A DNA stretch of 64,000 nucleotides, taken from NCBI GenBank assembly GCA_963921275.4, contig OZ001293.3:32001-96000 (forward strand). The letters run 5' to 3'. Below the pieces are notes generated by a model that was not told where the DNA came from, ran no database searches, and saw only the letters and a program-made list of their open reading frames with translations. The translations under genes were made by a program, and so were the position numbers. Below are positions 16,161 through 33,067 of the stretch, in pieces (positions within the stretch are counted from its first letter, which is position 1; the number at the start of each line of letters is the position of its first letter). This DNA comes from an uncultured Hormoscilla sp. (GTDB taxonomy: Bacteria > Cyanobacteriota > Cyanobacteriia > Cyanobacteriales > Desertifilaceae).

Positions 16161-17978
16161 GGATGCTGGGGCGCGGGGAGTTGATGCAGTTTGGGAAATT
16201 TTTAAAGGAGATCCTATCTGGCGGTGTTTGCTTCTAGTACAGCCGGTGATTGATGAGGCTTTGGTTCGGTGCCAGTCTGTTCTGAGTATGCTTAATGACC
16301 GGCGATAGGTCTCAAGTTTGATGACTACTTTGGGACGCTCTTTTTTATTTGTCCGTTCGGGAACGGGAGTAGGGAGTAGGTCTCACTTAGCTCTACCCAA
16401 CCTAGGGGTTACCTTCCTAGGTGGGTGCTGGTGGCATTGGGAGCAAAACTCTCCTGGCGAGATGGAAGTCCCGAGTCAGGAGCGCTAGTGCGGGTGCAGA
16501 TCTATTGCCCGGCCTATGTCATGAGAATTTTTGCTATCTCTGCGGTCTGAAAATTGCTATCTCTGCGGTATGAAAAAAATGTCAGAAAAGCTAGGGGCAT
16601 AACGTCTAGTATGAGAAGGCATTTGCTGTGGCTCTTTCGAGCAGATTTGGCCGAGCGCATTTTTGGCGTCGGCCCCTACTGGCCATAAGGGAAATACATA
16701 TACATAGTGTTTTGGCAAAACTCAGTTGACTACGATGGTTATCAGGTGACTACGATGGTTACAGCTAGTGAAGGTGGTTTGACACAGCAGCGAAAGTCCA
16801 ATATAATCTCTCAGTTTTGGTCTATATGGCTGGACTATGAAGACAAGCTTTATCGCTGCTGTCTCAGGTTGATGAACTGGAACATAACGGAGGCGGAAGA
16901 TGCTCTGAGTCAGGCAAAGATCAAGGGTTGGGAAAATGTGCAAAAGTTTGCTGGCCAGATCTCAAACTTAAAAGCTTGGCTGATGCAGTTGACGAGCAAC
17001 CTCTGCAAAGATATCATCGGCAAACGCTCTCGGGGCCCGGCGGCGGTAGAGGATATTGAATGGGTGGGGGATAATGGAGTTCTGTGTACGGCCTCTGGGG
17101 TGGCGACGCCCATGATGGTGCTGGAGATGTCCGATACGTATGTGGCGATCCGACGGGCAGTAGCATCGTTACCCCAAGGGCAGCGGGATACTTTTGTTTT
17201 ACATTATTATGAAGGGCTTAAGCATAAAGAAATTGCTCAACGGCTAGGGATATCCTACGATAGCGTCTGCAAACGGATATCTTTGGCACGCCAACAGTTG
17301 AAGACGAAGTTGAGGGGCTATTTTTGTGAGGAAGAGGATCTGAAAACGGCCTTGGAGCTTTGGCTCCCAAAATATCCTACCCCACAGGGGAGAGTAGAAA
17401 AGCGGAAGATAGGATCCCCAGTGGAGAAGGGGAAGGAGTTGGCTACTGTTGAGACTGCAAGAGTGTGCGTGGTAGGGGAAGGGTTAACGGACTTTAAGGA
17501 TGGCGCAGTGGAGCATCCTGCTGATGTGGGGAGCGTTCCCAGGCGGGAACGAGGTGGTGTCTGTGAAGAACTTGCCAAGTTATCGACACCGAAGGACTGT
17601 GCCCCTGTGGTAGGGGAGAATATACTCTCAAATGATACTCAGGGGATGGTGAGTGCTTCTGTATCGGCTGCAAGTACCTGTACGGCTGAGGATGTGAAGG
17701 GTGTTGTGCCGGTTATAGTCGAGCAGAAGAGATCGCAAGTATGTACTATGTTGTCCGGGCGATCGCCCTGTGTGACCCCTGTGGGGAGCAGTTCGACTTC
17801 GCTCACCGCTAGTGGGGAACAGATGTTGTGTTCTCCACTCGGTGGGGAAAGGGCAACTGTATCGACAGCTCCGGAGTGGGTGTTGATAACTAAAGTATGA
17901 TTTCCAGGAATTTTATATATTTTTCCGGAAATATATTCTCGCGCGTGGTATAATATTGATAGTGCAAACAAAAACATC

Positions 17979-18566
17979 ATGAGATATGCCACACCGAGAG
18001 AAGCGTCACAAGTCCTTCAGGTCTCGGAAAAAACACTCCGAAACTGGGATAGAGACGGAAAAATACAGACAATTAGAACTCCCGCTGGTCATCGACGATA
18101 CGACATCGACTCCGTCATTAATCCAGACGGCTCCCCAAGAATCAGAATCCTCTACGCCAGAGTCAGTTCATATAAGCAAAAGTCAGACCTTGAACGGCAA
18201 GCCGACTATTTGCAATCCTTGTTCACAGACGGAAAACTTGTCAAGGAAATCGGATCAGGACTCAACTACAAACGCAAAGGGTTTTTATCCATTCTGGGAC
18301 AAGTCATGTCAGGAGATGTCAAAGAAGTTGTGGTCTGCCACAAAGACAGACTTGTCAGGTTTGGACTTGACCTTATCGAGTGGCTCTGTCAACAAAAAGA
18401 TTGCCAACTCGTGGTTCTCAACCGAAGTGACCTATCTCCAGAACGAGAAATGGTTGAGGATATCCTTGCCATCGTCCATGTCTTCAGTTGCAGACTCTAT
18501 GGACTCAGGAAGTACAAATCTGCTATCAAAGAAGATTCGAGTTTACCCAGAAACGGCATTAGCTAA
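17979..18566 (+). CDS. tnpA: IS607 TnpA (MerR-type HTH plus serine recombinase)
   Basis: Motifs TLRNWD, RTPAGHRRY, YARVSS, EIGSGLN and DRLVRFG. Confidence 0.93.
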   Translation: MRYATPREASQVLQVSEKTLRNWDRDGKIQTIRTPAGHRRYDIDSVINPDGSPRIRILYARVSSYKQKSDLERQADYLQSLFTDGKLVKEIGSGLNYKRKGFLSILGQVMSGDVKEVVVCHKDRLVRFGLDLIEWLCQQKDCQLVVLNRSDLSPEREMVEDILAIVHVFSCRLYGLRKYKSAIKEDSSLPRNGIS

Positions 18567-19677
18567 AACCTGGTTTCAATGGATATCAGCAGCCAGATGG
18601 TGCTTCAATCAAGCCATTGCTATACTCAAAAATCAGAAGATTGGCAAATATGACCTACGCAAAACGGTCATGGATATGGCTCCATCTTGGGTAAGTCAAA
18701 CCCCATATAGCCCACGCCAATTGGCAATATTTCAGGCTTATGAGGCACACAAAGCAGCAAGAAAATCAGGAGGAGATGCTAAATTTCGCTCAGTACGTGA
18801 ATCTGTTAAGTCTATCCGGTTTCAGAAAAATAACTGGAAAAAAGGAAATTTTTATCCAACACAGACCAAAGGATTAAGGTTCAAAGCAAGTGAGCCAATT
18901 ATAGACAAAATGCACCATGAGCCTACATTGGTACTAGACAGAGGACGTTGGTTTATCTGTTATGCCATAGACGTGCCTAAACTGGAACCATTAAACAGTG
19001 AGCTAGCCATCGCCCTTGATCCAGGTGTCAGGACATTTCTAACTGGGTTTGACGGTCAAGAAATTTGGGAGGTTGGCAAGTCTGATATGGGTCGTATCTA
19101 TCGGTTAGCCAGTCATCTCGATCGGCTAATGTCTCGAATCGGCTTATCTAAAGAACGCCAATTTAAGCGGCTACGGCACTGCCTGCGAAAGGCGGCACAA
19201 AAGATTCGGGTTAAGATTCGTAACTTGGTTGATGAACTGCATAAGAAAGCAGCCAACTATCTATGCACCAAGTACAAAGTCATATTTTTGCCTACATTTG
19301 AGGTTAAAAATATGGTCAAACGAGGCAAGCGACGGTTGTCAACTAAGACAGCACGTAAAATGGTTACATGGTCTCATTACCGTTTTAAGCAAACGTTGAA
19401 GCATCAAGCAGCTAAATACGGCTGTGTTGTAGTAGACGTGACGGAAGAGTACACCAGCAAAACTTGCTCAAAATGTGGGCACATTCACATAAAGTTAGGA
19501 GGCAACAAACGATTTATTTGTCCCTCATGTGGTCACACTATTAGTCGTGATATTAATGGCGCTTTCAACATTTTGTTGAAGGCTTTGAGAGATACCTCCG
19601 CATCTGGCCTGATAGCTTCATTCCAGATTGTGCCATACTCAGAAATTTCCGGCAATTACAAGATTTTTTCGGGTTAA
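17986..19677 (+). CDS. tnpB: TnpB RNA-guided nuclease, rearranged-RuvC (pro-Fanzor-like) type; true start uncertain
   Basis: Motifs ALDPGVRTF, VIFLPTF, VTEEYTSKTCSKCG, CPSCG and RDINGAFNI. Confidence 0.9.
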   Translation: MPHREKRHKSFRSRKKHSETGIETEKYRQLELPLVIDDTTSTPSLIQTAPQESESSTPESVHISKSQTLNGKPTICNPCSQTENLSRKSDQDSTTNAKGFYPFWDKSCQEMSKKLWSATKTDLSGLDLTLSSGSVNKKIANSWFSTEVTYLQNEKWLRISLPSSMSSVADSMDSGSTNLLSKKIRVYPETALAKTWFQWISAARWCFNQAIAILKNQKIGKYDLRKTVMDMAPSWVSQTPYSPRQLAIFQAYEAHKAARKSGGDAKFRSVRESVKSIRFQKNNWKKGNFYPTQTKGLRFKASEPIIDKMHHEPTLVLDRGRWFICYAIDVPKLEPLNSELAIALDPGVRTFLTGFDGQEIWEVGKSDMGRIYRLASHLDRLMSRIGLSKERQFKRLRHCLRKAAQKIRVKIRNLVDELHKKAANYLCTKYKVIFLPTFEVKNMVKRGKRRLSTKTARKMVTWSHYRFKQTLKHQAAKYGCVVVDVTEEYTSKTCSKCGHIHIKLGGNKRFICPSCGHTISRDINGAFNILLKALRDTSASGLIASFQIVPYSEISGNYKIFSG

Positions 19678-20824
19678 ATGTATCTGCAAGTATTGGATAT
19701 AGTTGGTAAAAATATTTTGGATGTAAGTGAGAAGGGGTCCGCCCGATCGCCTTTTCAAGCCCCACTAGGTATAGTAGAAATGCAGAGGCTCCTGTTGGGT
19801 GAAGAACTCAATGAGGAGACGCTGACTGTAAGGGCTGCAAGGGCGATCGCGCCTGTGGCTGTTCGACTTCGCTCACCGCAAGCTGTGGAGGAAAAACCCG
19901 ACGATGTCAGGACTGTTGTGCGGGTTAATGTGGAGCAGAAGTTATCGGATGTACGTTCTCAGTTAAGAGCCCGATCGCAGGAGCAGACCCCTGTGGCCAG
20001 TGGGGAAAAGCAGTTGTGTTCTCAACTCGGTCGGGAGACAGCAACTGTATCGACAGCGATAGAGTGCGTACCAGTGGTAGTTCGACTTCGCTCACCGCAA
20101 GCAGCGGAAGCAAAACAGGATAAGTGCTGTTGTGCAGTGGAGCCAAAGGATATAATTGGTCAAAATATAATGGAAGTAAGTGAGAATGGGTCCGCCCGAT
20201 CGCCCGGGGGAACGGCTTCGGCAGCAAGTGCGCTCGCGCCTGTGGTTGTGGAGGAAAAACCCGACGATGTCAGGACTGTTGTGCGGAGCAGAAGTTATCG
20301 GATGTACATTCAAGAGGCCGATCTCCCTGCATCCGCCAACGTTCTCGGGGGGGCGTTGCACAATTACGGGATGATGGGCCTAGTTGCAGAAGTCTTAAAC
20401 CTAGACTACAAGCCAGTTTCAGTTATGTACAAAAAATGGAATCATCCCCAAAATGTGCAACGCCCTCGGGGGGCTGTCGGTGTTGATGATATAGAGTGGG
20501 TTGGTGATACCGGGGAAATGGGGGTGGCGTCGGCGGTGGAGTTGCCGGAGATGGTTCTGGAGAGGGATGAGAGGTCGGTGGTTATTCGACGGGCGATCGC
20601 TTCCTTAGCGGAACGGATGCGGGAAACTTTTATTTGACATTTTTATGAGGAGCTTACCCATACGGAAATTGTGGAACGGCAAGGGAAATCATACGAAAGA
20701 TTCGGTTGGCCCATCACCATGACACAAAAAGTTAAGGAAAAAAGAGAAAAAGAAGTCAGAAAAAAAGAAGAAAAAGCGTCTAATGTTCAAAGCCAATTCA
20801 AAGAAATAATAGAGTAAGTGAAAA

Positions 20825-31605: not shown

Positions 31606-33067
31606 ATGAAACAGAAATCATTATGGAAACTGTTAACTGGGGCAATGGCGATCGGCTTTGTCATAGTCCTAGTTTGGGCACCAAGGACAGAGTCGAAAAT
31701 ACCACATGCTTTAAGAGAAAACCCAACAGCAAGTCCGCCAGCAGCGGAGGCGGTGGAAATTGCCCAAATCTTTGGCAGAACCCGTTACCAGAAACTCGCG
31801 GAAGCAGACAGATTTATTAAACTGGGAAATCTTGGGGAAGCGGAAAGACTCCAGCGGCAAGTAAAACCGGCATTTGCTGCTGCTAGTCCGCCACCAAAGC
31901 CGGTTTTGGAGATTTCTGATGCCTCTCCAGCGGCTCGGGTATACTGGCGAGAGGCGAATGCGGGTCTACAGCAAGGTCTGGAAAGCAAAACCTTCGTGCC
32001 CCTAGAGCTGTTGACCGAGAATTATCCGGACTTTATCCCCGGTCATTTGCTGCTGGCGTCAGCTGCTCAAAAATATGGACAGCCCGAAAGAGCTATTGCC
32101 GCCTTGGAACGAGCAACATCTCTGTATCCGGACAACACAGAACTGCTGGATCGGAAATCGCTTTGCTGGCAGAGCAAGACCAGTGGTTAGAAGCTGCCAT
32201 TGCAGCCCGTCAATTTGCCCTCATCTATCCGGAGGATCCCCAGGCGGCTAAGTACGATCGCCTGGCAGACAAGCATTTCCAAAAGTACAGATCCCAGATC
32301 GAGCAAGATTTGTTCGGCTTGGGAATAGCACATGTGGTAACCTGCCAAGTCATCGGCGACTGTTTGAGAGGAGAGCTAATTGAGCTACTGCTACAGGGAG
32401 AAGCAGCTACGGGTAAGGAGTTCGCAGAAAGCTTAAAAAAAGATCTCACTTTGGTAGAAGACCCGGCTGTGGTAGAGTACGTGAATGAAATCGGTCAGAA
32501 ACTAGCGAAGTTTATGGGGCGAGATGAGTTCGAGTACGAATTTTATGTGGTCGAAGACTCCACTCCTAATGCCTTCGCTCTACCGGGCGGCAAGATATTT
32601 ATACATTCGGGGCTCATGAAGTTAATGGGGTAGAATTATACCAGAGGGTGATGAGGGCACCAGAGCCGACAAGAACTCAACCAGCATCAACCCCGCGTCG
32701 GAATCAACCAAGATCGGGGCCTGTAGCTCTGAACATAGTGCAAAAGAAGGATGATGTCCAAATCAGCATCAACAGAGCCAACGTGAATGCTACGGGTGGG
32801 TTTACTGTAGATCTGGTGATTAAAAATGACAGTAATGACAAATTTGGGTTTGTGCCTTTGTTTGTACAAGTGCTTGACGACAGTGGCAACAGGGTTTCAT
32901 CCCGGTTCTTATTAACAGCAGGAGAAGATGCTTTTGTTCCACCAGGTGGCAGTTTGAGAAGGACTTTGCTGATCGTAGGCGCCCGTTGGCAAACTGGCAG
33001 CCAAGATTTGACTGTGGTGGTTAAAGAATCTACACCCGGAGGTAGAGTTTTCCGCATCCCATTGTGA
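31606..33067 (+). pseudogene. TPR plus M48 metallopeptidase, frameshifted with the HExxH region deleted
   Basis: TPR-like helices and PNAFALPGGKIFIHSGL followed by a stop; a C-terminal beta domain lies in 32648-33067. Confidence 0.75.

Follow-up and report, generated by a model that had tools for sequence, protein, structure and literature searches.

The 64,000-nucleotide stretch of DNA analysed here (the window; positions 32,001 to 96,000 of contig OZ001293.3, assembly GCA_963921275.4, from an uncultured Hormoscilla sp.) carries an IS607-family insertion sequence of about 1.8 kb with two overlapping genes, tnpA for a serine recombinase and tnpB for a predicted RNA-guided nuclease. The best explanation, in which we have good confidence, is that this is a recently mobile cyanobacterial pro-Fanzor IS607 whose TnpB is 563 amino acids (aa) long, and whose N-terminal domain is overprinted on the codons of tnpA. 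The name pro-Fanzors was given to mostly cyanobacterial IS607 TnpBs that have a DPG motif and an alternative Glu and that are the proposed source of Fanzor2 (Yoon et al., NAR 2023, PMC10711439). The same group has been named TnpB2 (Jiang et al., Sci Adv 2023, PMC10530073), and branches with a rearranged RuvC-II have been treated more generally (Altae-Tran et al. 2023, PMC10691335). By its sequence features the window TnpB is another member of this already published clade. As the element lies in a bacterial chromosome contig of 6.9 Mb, it is a prokaryotic relative and not a Fanzor. Coordinates are those of the window and are collected in Table 1, where the nucleotide positions of motif residues were placed by hand on the sequence.

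The long tnpB reading frame gives Pfam matches from residue 180 onward (HTH_OrfB_IS605, OrfB_IS605 and Cas12f1-like_TNB; PF07282, E 6.2e-23), and its sequence predicts a RuvC nuclease with the rearranged catalytic triad D345/E487/D522, in which a conserved Pro takes the place of the canonical Glu; guidance by RNA is likewise predicted. In a HMMER alignment to ISDra2 TnpB (8bf8/8h1j), the Pro of FLPTF is opposite the Glu of GTEHL, which we take to be the catalytic E278. In the HMMER alignment to mimivirus L79, that is, ApmFz2 (9b0l), the first Glu of TEEY is opposite E467. The catalytic triad of ApmFz2 is Asp324/Glu467/Asp501, with Glu467 displaced 50 residues C-terminally relative to TnpB (PMC11832414), and an E467A mutant is labelled as catalytically dead in a figure legend (PMC11832414, PMC10530073). 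Conservation of these positions was counted in a MAFFT alignment of 151 rows, made up of the window protein and 150 cluster representatives (clusters at 50% identity), which ranked best among 15,611 matches at E <=0.001. D occupies the RuvC-I column in 149 of the 151 rows and the RuvC-III column in 144, and P occupies both the DPG Pro column and the canonical-Glu column in 147. The alternative-Glu column holds E in 146 rows, the other five being gaps. The published pro-Fanzor regular expression, DPG x(120,160) E x6 CxxC x(12,18) CxxC x(4,8) D, matches the window protein over residues 345-522, and a looser version of it matches 114 of 149 representatives.

Among solved structures, the protein is closest to Fanzor2. 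In a phmmer search of PDB chains with the window TnpB, Fanzor2 is found with E 1.7e-27 versus 1.2e-11 for ISDra2 TnpB, and with the family profile these values are 4.7e-70 and 2.4e-22. Fold comparison gives Z 25.3 and a root-mean-square deviation (rmsd) of 3.2 over 402 residues for 9b0l, versus Z 23.4 and rmsd 2.8 over 332 residues for 8h1j; the gap in Z is less than 2, while the aligned coverage clearly differs. The nearest relatives with a named source are all from filamentous cyanobacteria (Coleofasciculus, Microcoleus, Oscillatoria, Moorena, Arthrospira/Limnospira and Phormidium). A maximum likelihood tree was built from 41 chosen rows, comprising the window protein, three cyanobacterial and one plasmid sequence, 18 of 79 viral loci, 13 of the 150 representatives and five canonical IS607 TnpBs; contigs labelled as giant viruses and the canonical IS607 TnpBs take the place of named Fanzor2 and ISDra2 sequences, which it does not contain. 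In this tree, the window protein falls within a 36-row clade of alternative-Glu sequences together with viral and giant-virus-labelled sequences, with a support of 85 in the Shimodaira-Hasegawa-like approximate likelihood ratio test (SH-aLRT). The TnpBs of H. pylori, C. jejuni and P. sordellii are placed apart, and the two other controls are on very long branches.

An earlier note, made from the letters of this DNA, had read DPG at RuvC-I, VIFLPTF at the usual position of the RuvC-II Glu, a Glu just before the zinc finger and RDING at RuvC-III, and had regarded both genes as intact. All of this is borne out: the four motifs stand in the translation, with P436 and E487 at the aligned positions described above, and both tnpA, at 195 codons, and the tnpB frame, at 563 codons, are open. 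The note had also assigned the element to the IS607 TnpB clade proposed as the ancestor of Fanzors, and the protein does fit the pro-Fanzor definition of Yoon et al., with Fanzor2 as its best solved match. A catalytic Glu at the standard position, which in canonical TnpBs is the end of the RuvC-II strand some 50 residues ahead of the zinc finger, or clustering with canonical TnpBs, would have spoken against this assignment. The alignments place no Glu there, and the tree, phmmer, profile and fold comparisons all put the protein apart from canonical TnpBs. The element, its clade and its active-site arrangement are, in our judgement, close to certain.

The tnpA gene encodes a protein with a MerR helix-turn-helix (HTH) domain (PF00376, E 2.8e-10, residues 5-41) followed by a Resolvase domain (PF00239, E 2.8e-18, residues 57-177). 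As judged from the sequence, this order, with an N-terminal HTH and a C-terminal catalytic domain, is that of IS607 TnpA. The tnpB frame is the +1 frame of tnpA. Its open stretch begins at a TGA overlapping the ATG of tnpA and covers the entire tnpA gene. The overprinted domain is very probably real coding sequence, and translation most likely begins at ATG 17986, 7 nt after the tnpA ATG, to give 563 aa. Both the open +1 frame and an ATG at tnpA+7 are found in the window and in seven of seven relatives' loci tested, including one (L025) in which TnpA is 64% identical. Across tnpA, the window and these seven loci have no stops in the +1 frame and five to nine in the +2 frame. Synonymous recoding of TnpA with the codon usage of the window introduces a mean of about 11 stops, and 0 of 5000 recodings were stop-free at each of the six loci that could be simulated.

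Substitution patterns are in line with coding in both frames. At 4-fold degenerate sites, divergence in tnpA is lower than in non-overlapped tnpB in 10 of 10 pairs. Within tnpA, it is 0.13 (38/293) for codons 102-195 versus 0.39 (127/322) for codons 1-101, which makes conservation of synonymous sites about 3-fold higher in the 3' half than in the 5' half. In the tnpB frame, identity to L025 is 0.65 for residues 100-171 and 0.68 for the core, and 0.37 for residues 1-99. Long forms are also found among annotated proteins: among the 120 closest database proteins, 46 have a called length of at least 540 aa, and 44 of these 46 carry both the PFW...LW and SWFS motifs. The annotated length of TnpB in source-named relatives is mostly 360-430 aa.

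Relatives on viral contigs (n=79, 27-47% identity) have the same arrangement. In 64 of them there is a tnpA match at the extension, and in all 64 the TnpB frame is tnpA +1. For 49 distinct viral loci with a near-full tnpA, the last 95 codons contain no stops in +1 (49/49 stop-free) versus 328 in +2 (0/49 stop-free), and in the 5' part of tnpA stops average 1.76 in +1 versus 7.78 in +2. Seven of the 15 viral loci that have no tnpA match still have 68-128 open codons upstream of the core, and a pro-Fanzor on a Trichormus plasmid has 176. Five canonical IS607 elements were used as controls (H. pylori, P. sordellii, L. salivarius, Thiodictyon and C. jejuni). Their tnpA +1 frames contain 8-30 stops, their tnpA-tnpB overlaps are 4-38 nt, and their TnpB frames are open for 1-9 codons upstream of the annotated start, or 60 in Thiodictyon. 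Chance or composition as the cause of the open +1 frame was rejected on the recoding simulation together with these controls. Two relatives' loci (L011 and L012) each have one internal stop in tnpA, with the tnpB frame open across 172 upstream codons; either the nuclease frame has been retained after death of the transposase, or this is chance in young pseudogenes.

The overlap of the tnpB frame over tnpA is unmentioned in the main text of PMC10711439, where 'overlap', 'N-terminal', 'frameshift' and 'fusion' each occur 0 times (supplements and figures lie outside this count). Its preprint uses 'overlap' twice, both times in a context unrelated to tnpA/tnpB. Overprinting of tnpA and tnpB was likewise not found in the portions covered of PMC10530073, PMC10432273 and the IS607 IStron preprint (bioRxiv 10.1101/2023.11.20.567912), and PMC3627910 has 0 occurrences of 'overlap'.

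The overprinted part of the protein with the strongest conservation is residues 100-171, which hold a PFW...LW helix and an NSWFS strand. Profile and predicted structure point to residues ~100-171 being a conserved domain, homologous to RuvC-R and the adjoining part of the Fanzor2 N-terminal domain. Within the PFW...LW and SWFS motifs, W104, L115 and W143 are at least 90% conserved across 76 long forms (29-66% identity). In the profile of long forms, positions 109-534 align to ApmFz2 residues 73-509, with NSWF opposite NSWY (81-84). ApmFz2 residues 65-91 have been named RuvC-R (PMC11832414), and NSWY is inside this segment. In an AF2 model (mean predicted local distance difference test score (pLDDT) 75.9), residues 1-99 are disordered, and a helix (106-116) and a strand (146-150) follow, with a pLDDT of 88 for blocks 101-110 and 141-150. 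Structural alignment of the model to 9b0l begins at model residue 100 and chain residue 53; alignment to ISDra2 TnpB begins at residue 176. Residues 1-99 would be a disordered leader under loose constraint. An N-terminal domain of the Fanzor2 type is probably no eukaryotic or viral addition, and would already have been present in bacterial pro-Fanzors, overprinted in +1 on the codons of the tnpA catalytic domain.

The first ~20 residues of the long frame (17986-18045) are strongly basic (MPHREKRHKSFRSRKKH) and lie over the codons of the TnpA HTH. They recall the N-terminal nuclear localisation signal (NLS) found in Fanzors (PMC10530073), though in a bacterium, and the region is poorly conserved (0.37 identity to L025).

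The element has recently been mobile, as there are multiple copies in the genome and precise empty sites in sister genomes. The genome (7.03 Mb, seven contigs) has five full copies with unrelated flanks, and the block common to all five runs from GTGTTGATAAC (17880) to ATGTATCTG (19686). The full copies differ from the window copy by 0-8 substitutions each, three of the other four by 5-8. The tnpA gene is intact in all five and the tnpB frame in four, including the window copy. In the remaining full copy (L003, G000:C1:1399861-1401667), tnpB is frameshifted near residue 296 through the deletion of 1 nt. Partial copies are also present: a 5'-truncated copy that consists of a 939-bp 3' fragment with the right end kept (L006, G000:C1:3756378-3757316), and a 110-bp left-end remnant of the same IS607 element (L007, G000:C1:2430341-2430449). 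A further segment of 172 bp (L009, G000:C1:4419061-4419232) has 69% identity to the region where tnpA and the N-terminal domain overlap, and this sequence suggests a second, diverged IS607 of the window type in the genome.

Two genomes of the same genus (G004 and G003) have the empty site, ...GGAGTGGGTG|CAAGTATTGG..., or with longer flanks ...CCGGAGTGG GTG CAAGTATTGGATATAGTTGG.... The occupied site is ...GTGG G-TG-TTGATAAC ... TATC-TG-CAAGT... versus GTG|CAAG in the empty one. TG is the sole dinucleotide common to both junctions and, once, to the empty site. From the comparison of empty and occupied sites it follows that 1804 bp were inserted at a TG crossover. Each junction now has one TG, with neither terminal inverted repeats nor a target-site duplication, as expected for a serine-recombinase crossover. 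The same comparison shows that the G before the left TG is target DNA. GT or CT as the crossover dinucleotide is ruled out, with the left junction being G-TG and the right C-TG, and with all five copies having moved in this way.

Both ends can be recognised in relatives. On the right, 17 of 17 relatives' loci finish with an identical stretch of 12 nt, TAAATGTATCTG, and similarity ends directly after it. A left end starting CTGTT is recognisable in 9 of the 12 relatives' loci that have upstream sequence, and was not recognised in L014, L019 and L020 within the 150 nt looked at. RNA-library data were available as contigs from 17 runs, each with 0.05-0.16 of the sampled words, and four runs were compared with the element: in contigs from these four similarity is lost exactly at 19686, and one run loses likeness at 17881. 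The left end contains a palindrome with a related sequence, and a -10-like box (Table 1), with putative roles, inferred from the sequence, as TnpA binding sites and as a promoter, respectively. A TTTCCGG word of the left end occurs again in the right end (19646).

In characterised IS607 elements, the core dinucleotide forms part of the target-adjacent motif (TAM), and its right-end copy is the terminus of the omegaRNA scaffold (bioRxiv 10.1101/2023.11.20.567912, PMC10711439). CboTnpB has the TAM TGGG versus TCGG at the right end, one upstream base being different and the occupied site being uncut, and ISXfa1 is similar (bioRxiv 10.1101/2023.11.20.567912, PMC10711439). By analogy, the TAM of the window element is predicted to be R(G/C)TG, that is, GGTG in the window copy. 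The left flanks of the five own copies are RRG+TG and those of nine relatives' loci are R-C-TG. Position -4 is a purine in all 14 of these flanks and T at the right end of the element (TCTG). It is the purine at -4 and the G or C at -3 that lead to the predicted motif. The base at -3 (17880) is on the target side of the crossover, and hence is not inherited with the element.

The predicted guide, CAAGTATTGGATATAGTTGG, starts at the first base past the conserved right end, directly after the GTG of the empty site; its length of 20 nt is an assumption from other TnpB systems. The earlier note had expected the TAM within GTGTTG and a guide starting near GATATAGTTGG (19697). The first GTG of that hexamer does correspond to the last three bases of the predicted TAM and is target DNA, whereas the TTG is already part of the element. 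The start of the guide was placed 10 nt too far to the right, since the empty sites put it at CAAGTATTGG (19687). The predicted omegaRNA scaffold lies in the right end. In an alignment of right ends the last ~45 columns are nearly invariant, with sequence conservation over the last ~120 nt, and the last 21 residues of TnpB have a pLDDT <50. A sliding identity profile along five elements has no distinctive peak at the right end.

In the mechanism proposed for this element, TnpA would excise and insert it via the TG crossover, the window copy splitting a sigma-factor-like gene. TnpB would bind a right-end omegaRNA composed of a scaffold ending ...GUAUCUG at 19686 and a guide of 16-20 nt of flanking DNA from 19687. 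The complex of TnpB and RNA would cut empty sites that have a TAM of approximately R(G/C)TG next to the target, and repair would recopy the element into the cut empty site, so that excision does not lead to its loss. With T at TAM position -4, the right junction of the occupied site (TCTG) would remain uncut. The long TnpB would start at ATG 17986, and the choice of start codon on one mRNA could set the ratio of transposase to nuclease. The start codon, the TAM, the limits of the omegaRNA and the role in homing are only slightly on the probable side.

Several observations weigh against this interpretation in one part or another. As the relatives behind the counts of stops and of synonymous sites are themselves related, these counts do not represent independent events. 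Before codon 100, the only start codons are the ATG at codon 1 and TTGs at codons 69 and 85. When searched alone, the N-terminal 185 residues have 0 phmmer matches among PDB sequences at E <=10, and it is the family profile alone that reaches the Fanzor2 N-terminal domain. The AF2 pLDDT is <50 for residues 1-99, 118-134 and 157-175, and the homology of the domain rests on profile and predicted structure. The window protein also does not have the basic 'thumb' stretch that is present in ApmFz2 and several relatives. In the tree, the clade support is 85 SH-aLRT and named Fanzor2 sequences are absent. At position -3 of the TAM, all five own copies have G and all nine relatives have C; the difference may reflect a lineage-specific change in the preferred target or TAM. 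An Rfam scan of 17700-19900 gives 0 matches at E <=1. The single-sequence RNA fold of 19520-19706 has a z of -1.04, with 33 of 200 shuffles folding equally well, and in the alignment fold of 16 right ends the covariation term is -0.96 kcal/mol, with 3 of 71 pairs compensatory. These fold statistics are insufficient for a claim of RNA structure. The metatranscriptome contigs (88-99% likeness) give the boundaries of the element only, and give no transcription, RNA starts or ends, strand or level.

An alternative is that just a short TnpB of 392 aa is made, from ATG 18499 or 18478, with the open +1 frame being a by-product of TnpA composition or a relic. The entries for close relatives with a named source would fit this, being mostly 360-430 aa, as would the two in-frame ATGs directly upstream of the core, the start of the HTH_OrfB_IS605 and ISDra2 TnpB alignments near residue 180, and the predicted disorder and poor conservation of residues 1-99. 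However, no stop-free frame came out of the synonymous recodings, the last 95 tnpA codons of divergent viral loci are stop-free in +1 in 49 of 49 cases versus 328 stops in +2, and canonical IS607 controls do not have the open frame. In addition, the ~3-fold conservation of synonymous sites is found exactly where the ordered N-terminal elements are encoded, the Trp and Leu residues there are nearly invariant, and residues 100-171 match the Fanzor2 N-terminal domain by profile and fold. Production of the short form alone thus seems unlikely. Slightly less likely again is that the N-terminal domain is reached via a programmed +1 frameshift from tnpA, giving a product in which the N-terminal part of TnpA is fused to TnpB. 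OrfAB frameshift fusions occur in IS1 and IS3. The constant relation of the frames, TnpB being in tnpA +1 at every locus with tnpA (64/64 viral and all cyanobacterial loci tested), is compatible with frameshifting, and in many viral loci the +1 frame is closed somewhere in the first 20-77 tnpA codons and always open later, so that internal entry is needed there. Conversely, no slippery site or stimulatory structure was found, though no systematic search was made, and in all cyanobacterial loci tested the frame has no closed part at its beginning and offers an ATG at tnpA+7. Loci without tnpA retain the extension, and ApmFz2 is active from its own annotated open reading frame (ORF) (PMC11832414, PMC10530073).

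Two other alternatives concern the nuclease itself, and both are highly improbable. The active site could be effectively canonical, with E439 (in TFEV, three residues past the Pro) as the RuvC-II Glu and E487 as a structural residue. E439 is a Glu near the canonical position, and its column is E in 93 of 151 rows. However, 44 rows have N, G, K, Q or D in this column, and ApmFz2 has N there, while E487 is invariant barring gaps and aligns to E467 of the catalytic triad. With E in just 93 of the rows, E439 is not a conserved catalytic residue, and its candidacy as a shifted canonical Glu is ruled out on column conservation. TnpB could instead be a domesticated or inactive derivative such as an RNA-guided repressor. 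Exaptations of TnpB of this kind are known (PMC10691335), and no result of this analysis directly favours one here. The three catalytic positions and the zinc finger are intact, and the gene is part of a multi-copy, recently mobile element, beside an intact tnpA. The pro-Fanzor IS607 with a 563-aa, overprinted TnpB remains the explanation that best fits these observations.

Table 1. Positions of the IS607 element, its genes, active-site residues, ends and predicted targeting features in the window.
Feature	Position	Strand	Basis or remarks
IS607-family element, ~1.8 kb	17881..19686	+	1804 bp inserted; TG at both junctions (17881-17882, 19685-19686)
tnpA, IS607-type serine recombinase, 195 aa	17979..18566	+	Open for 195 codons; Pfam
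tnpB long reading frame, 563 aa	17986..19677	+	ATG 7 nt after tnpA ATG
Overprinted conserved part of the N-terminal domain, residues 100-171	18283..18498	+	+1 frame of tnpA catalytic-domain codons
TnpB core (WED/REC/RuvC/zinc finger), 392-aa form	18499..19677	+	Pfam and PDB matches
RuvC-I Asp D345 (D174 in short form), in LDPGV (residues 344-348)	19018..19020	+	Translation; alignment
Pro P436 at canonical RuvC-II Glu position, in KVIFLPTFEV	19291..19293	+	Alignment
Alternative Glu E487, in TEEYTSKTCSKC, six residues before first CxxC	19444..19446	+	Alignment with ApmFz2 E467
C4 zinc finger, CSKC...CPSC	19465..19530	+	Translation, PF07282, regular expression
RuvC-III Asp D522, in SRDING	19549..19551	+	Aligns with RD of ApmFz2
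Left end	17883..17978	+	Sequence, motif positions
Palindrome TTTCCGGAAA	17922-17931	+	In left end; related TTCCAGGAAT also there
-10-like box, TGgTATAAT	17946-17954	+	Upstream of both start codons
Predicted TAM, GGTG	17879..17882	+	Consensus in the family R-[G/C]-T-G; crossover at its TG; by CboTnpB analogy
Right end, predicted omegaRNA scaffold	19560..19686	+	Overlaps tnpB 3' end; ends ...GUAUCUG; 5' limit uncertain
Predicted guide, CAAGTATTGGATATAGTTGG	19687..19706	+	Flanking host DNA; first base past conserved right end, directly after empty-site GTG
5' part of interrupted ECF-type sigma-70-like gene	16707..17882	+	Pfam Sigma70_r2, r4; 3' part resumes at 19687 in the same frame

The gene interrupted by the window copy encodes an extracytoplasmic function (ECF)-type sigma-70-like protein. 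In G004, the sigma-like ORF is uninterrupted across the site (...TAPEWVQVLDIVGKN...). The right end supplies in its final 9 nt (ATGTATCTG) an ATG at 19678 that faces outward and is in frame with the downstream half of the gene (MYL|QVLDIVGKN..., 19678-20637). The 3' part could thus be translated from this ATG, an in-frame match being expected by chance in one of three cases. The sigma-like protein has a long, internally repetitive tail with VVRLRSPQA and GEKQLCSQLGRETATVST (16707-20637), and the downstream ORF ends within a second stretch resembling sigma region 3/4 (...RMRETFI*). Such a stretch points to tandem paralogues or to a second copy that has decayed. A 79%-identical paralogue of the sigma-like gene is also found elsewhere in the genome (L045). 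In G004, an opposite-strand ORF of 327 aa (L041 2570-3553, minus strand) shortens the intact sigma-like ORF. Its product looks, from the appearance of its sequence and with no search run, like a DDE transposase of IS630/Tc1 type. A different element would therefore have struck the same gene there.

Compared with published pro-Fanzors or TnpB2s, the window protein is alike in all defining features: it is a cyanobacterial IS607 TnpB with DPG, an alternative Glu six residues before the zinc finger, and an IS607 TnpA partner. The frame over tnpA and the N-terminal domain go unmentioned in the portions of PMC10711439 and PMC10530073 covered. With ApmFz2 (L79, 9B0L) it shares the triad arrangement (D324/E467/D501 versus D345/E487/D522), the IS607 context and, by profile and predicted fold, an N-terminal extension with an NSW[FY] segment like that of RuvC-R, at 24% identity in the structural alignment. 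However, ApmFz2 is from a eukaryotic virus and has the TAM GGG, an NLS at residues 1-53 and a basic thumb (PMC11832414), whereas the window protein comes from a bacterium, is predicted to use a TAM ending in TG, has a leader in which only the first ~20 residues are basic, and shows no evident basic thumb stretch.

ISDra2 TnpB (8H1J, 8EXA, 8BF8) has the same core of WED, REC, RuvC and zinc finger, and its omegaRNA overlaps the 3' end of the gene (PMC10432273), as does the scaffold predicted here. It differs in having the canonical RuvC-II Glu, D-hydrophobic-G instead of DPG, no N-terminal extension, and an IS200/IS605 Y1 partner; its TAM is TTGAT (PMC11832414). CboIStron (bioRxiv 10.1101/2023.11.20.567912) and ISXfa1 (PMC10711439) resemble the window element in having a serine recombinase, a core dinucleotide within the TAM, which for the window element is a predicted one, and a right end that differs from the TAM at one upstream base. 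Their core is GG and their TAM TGGG, whereas the core of the window element is TG.

As first filed, the finding alone would be ordinary, adding one more member to the pro-Fanzor clade. What this element adds are five near-identical copies, empty sites in sister genomes, and a concrete triplet of predicted TAM, guide and target. If the overprinting is true, the origin of the N-terminal domain of Fanzor2 moves back into bacteria, and a functional domain would have arisen inside the reading frame of another gene, and nuclease and transposase would be physically linked in their expression. Pro-Fanzor ORFs annotated or synthesised at ~390-400 aa would then lack part of the enzyme, and constructs made from them may be incomplete. 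Such a warning matters where the pro-Fanzor clade is mined for compact genome editors without collateral cleavage.

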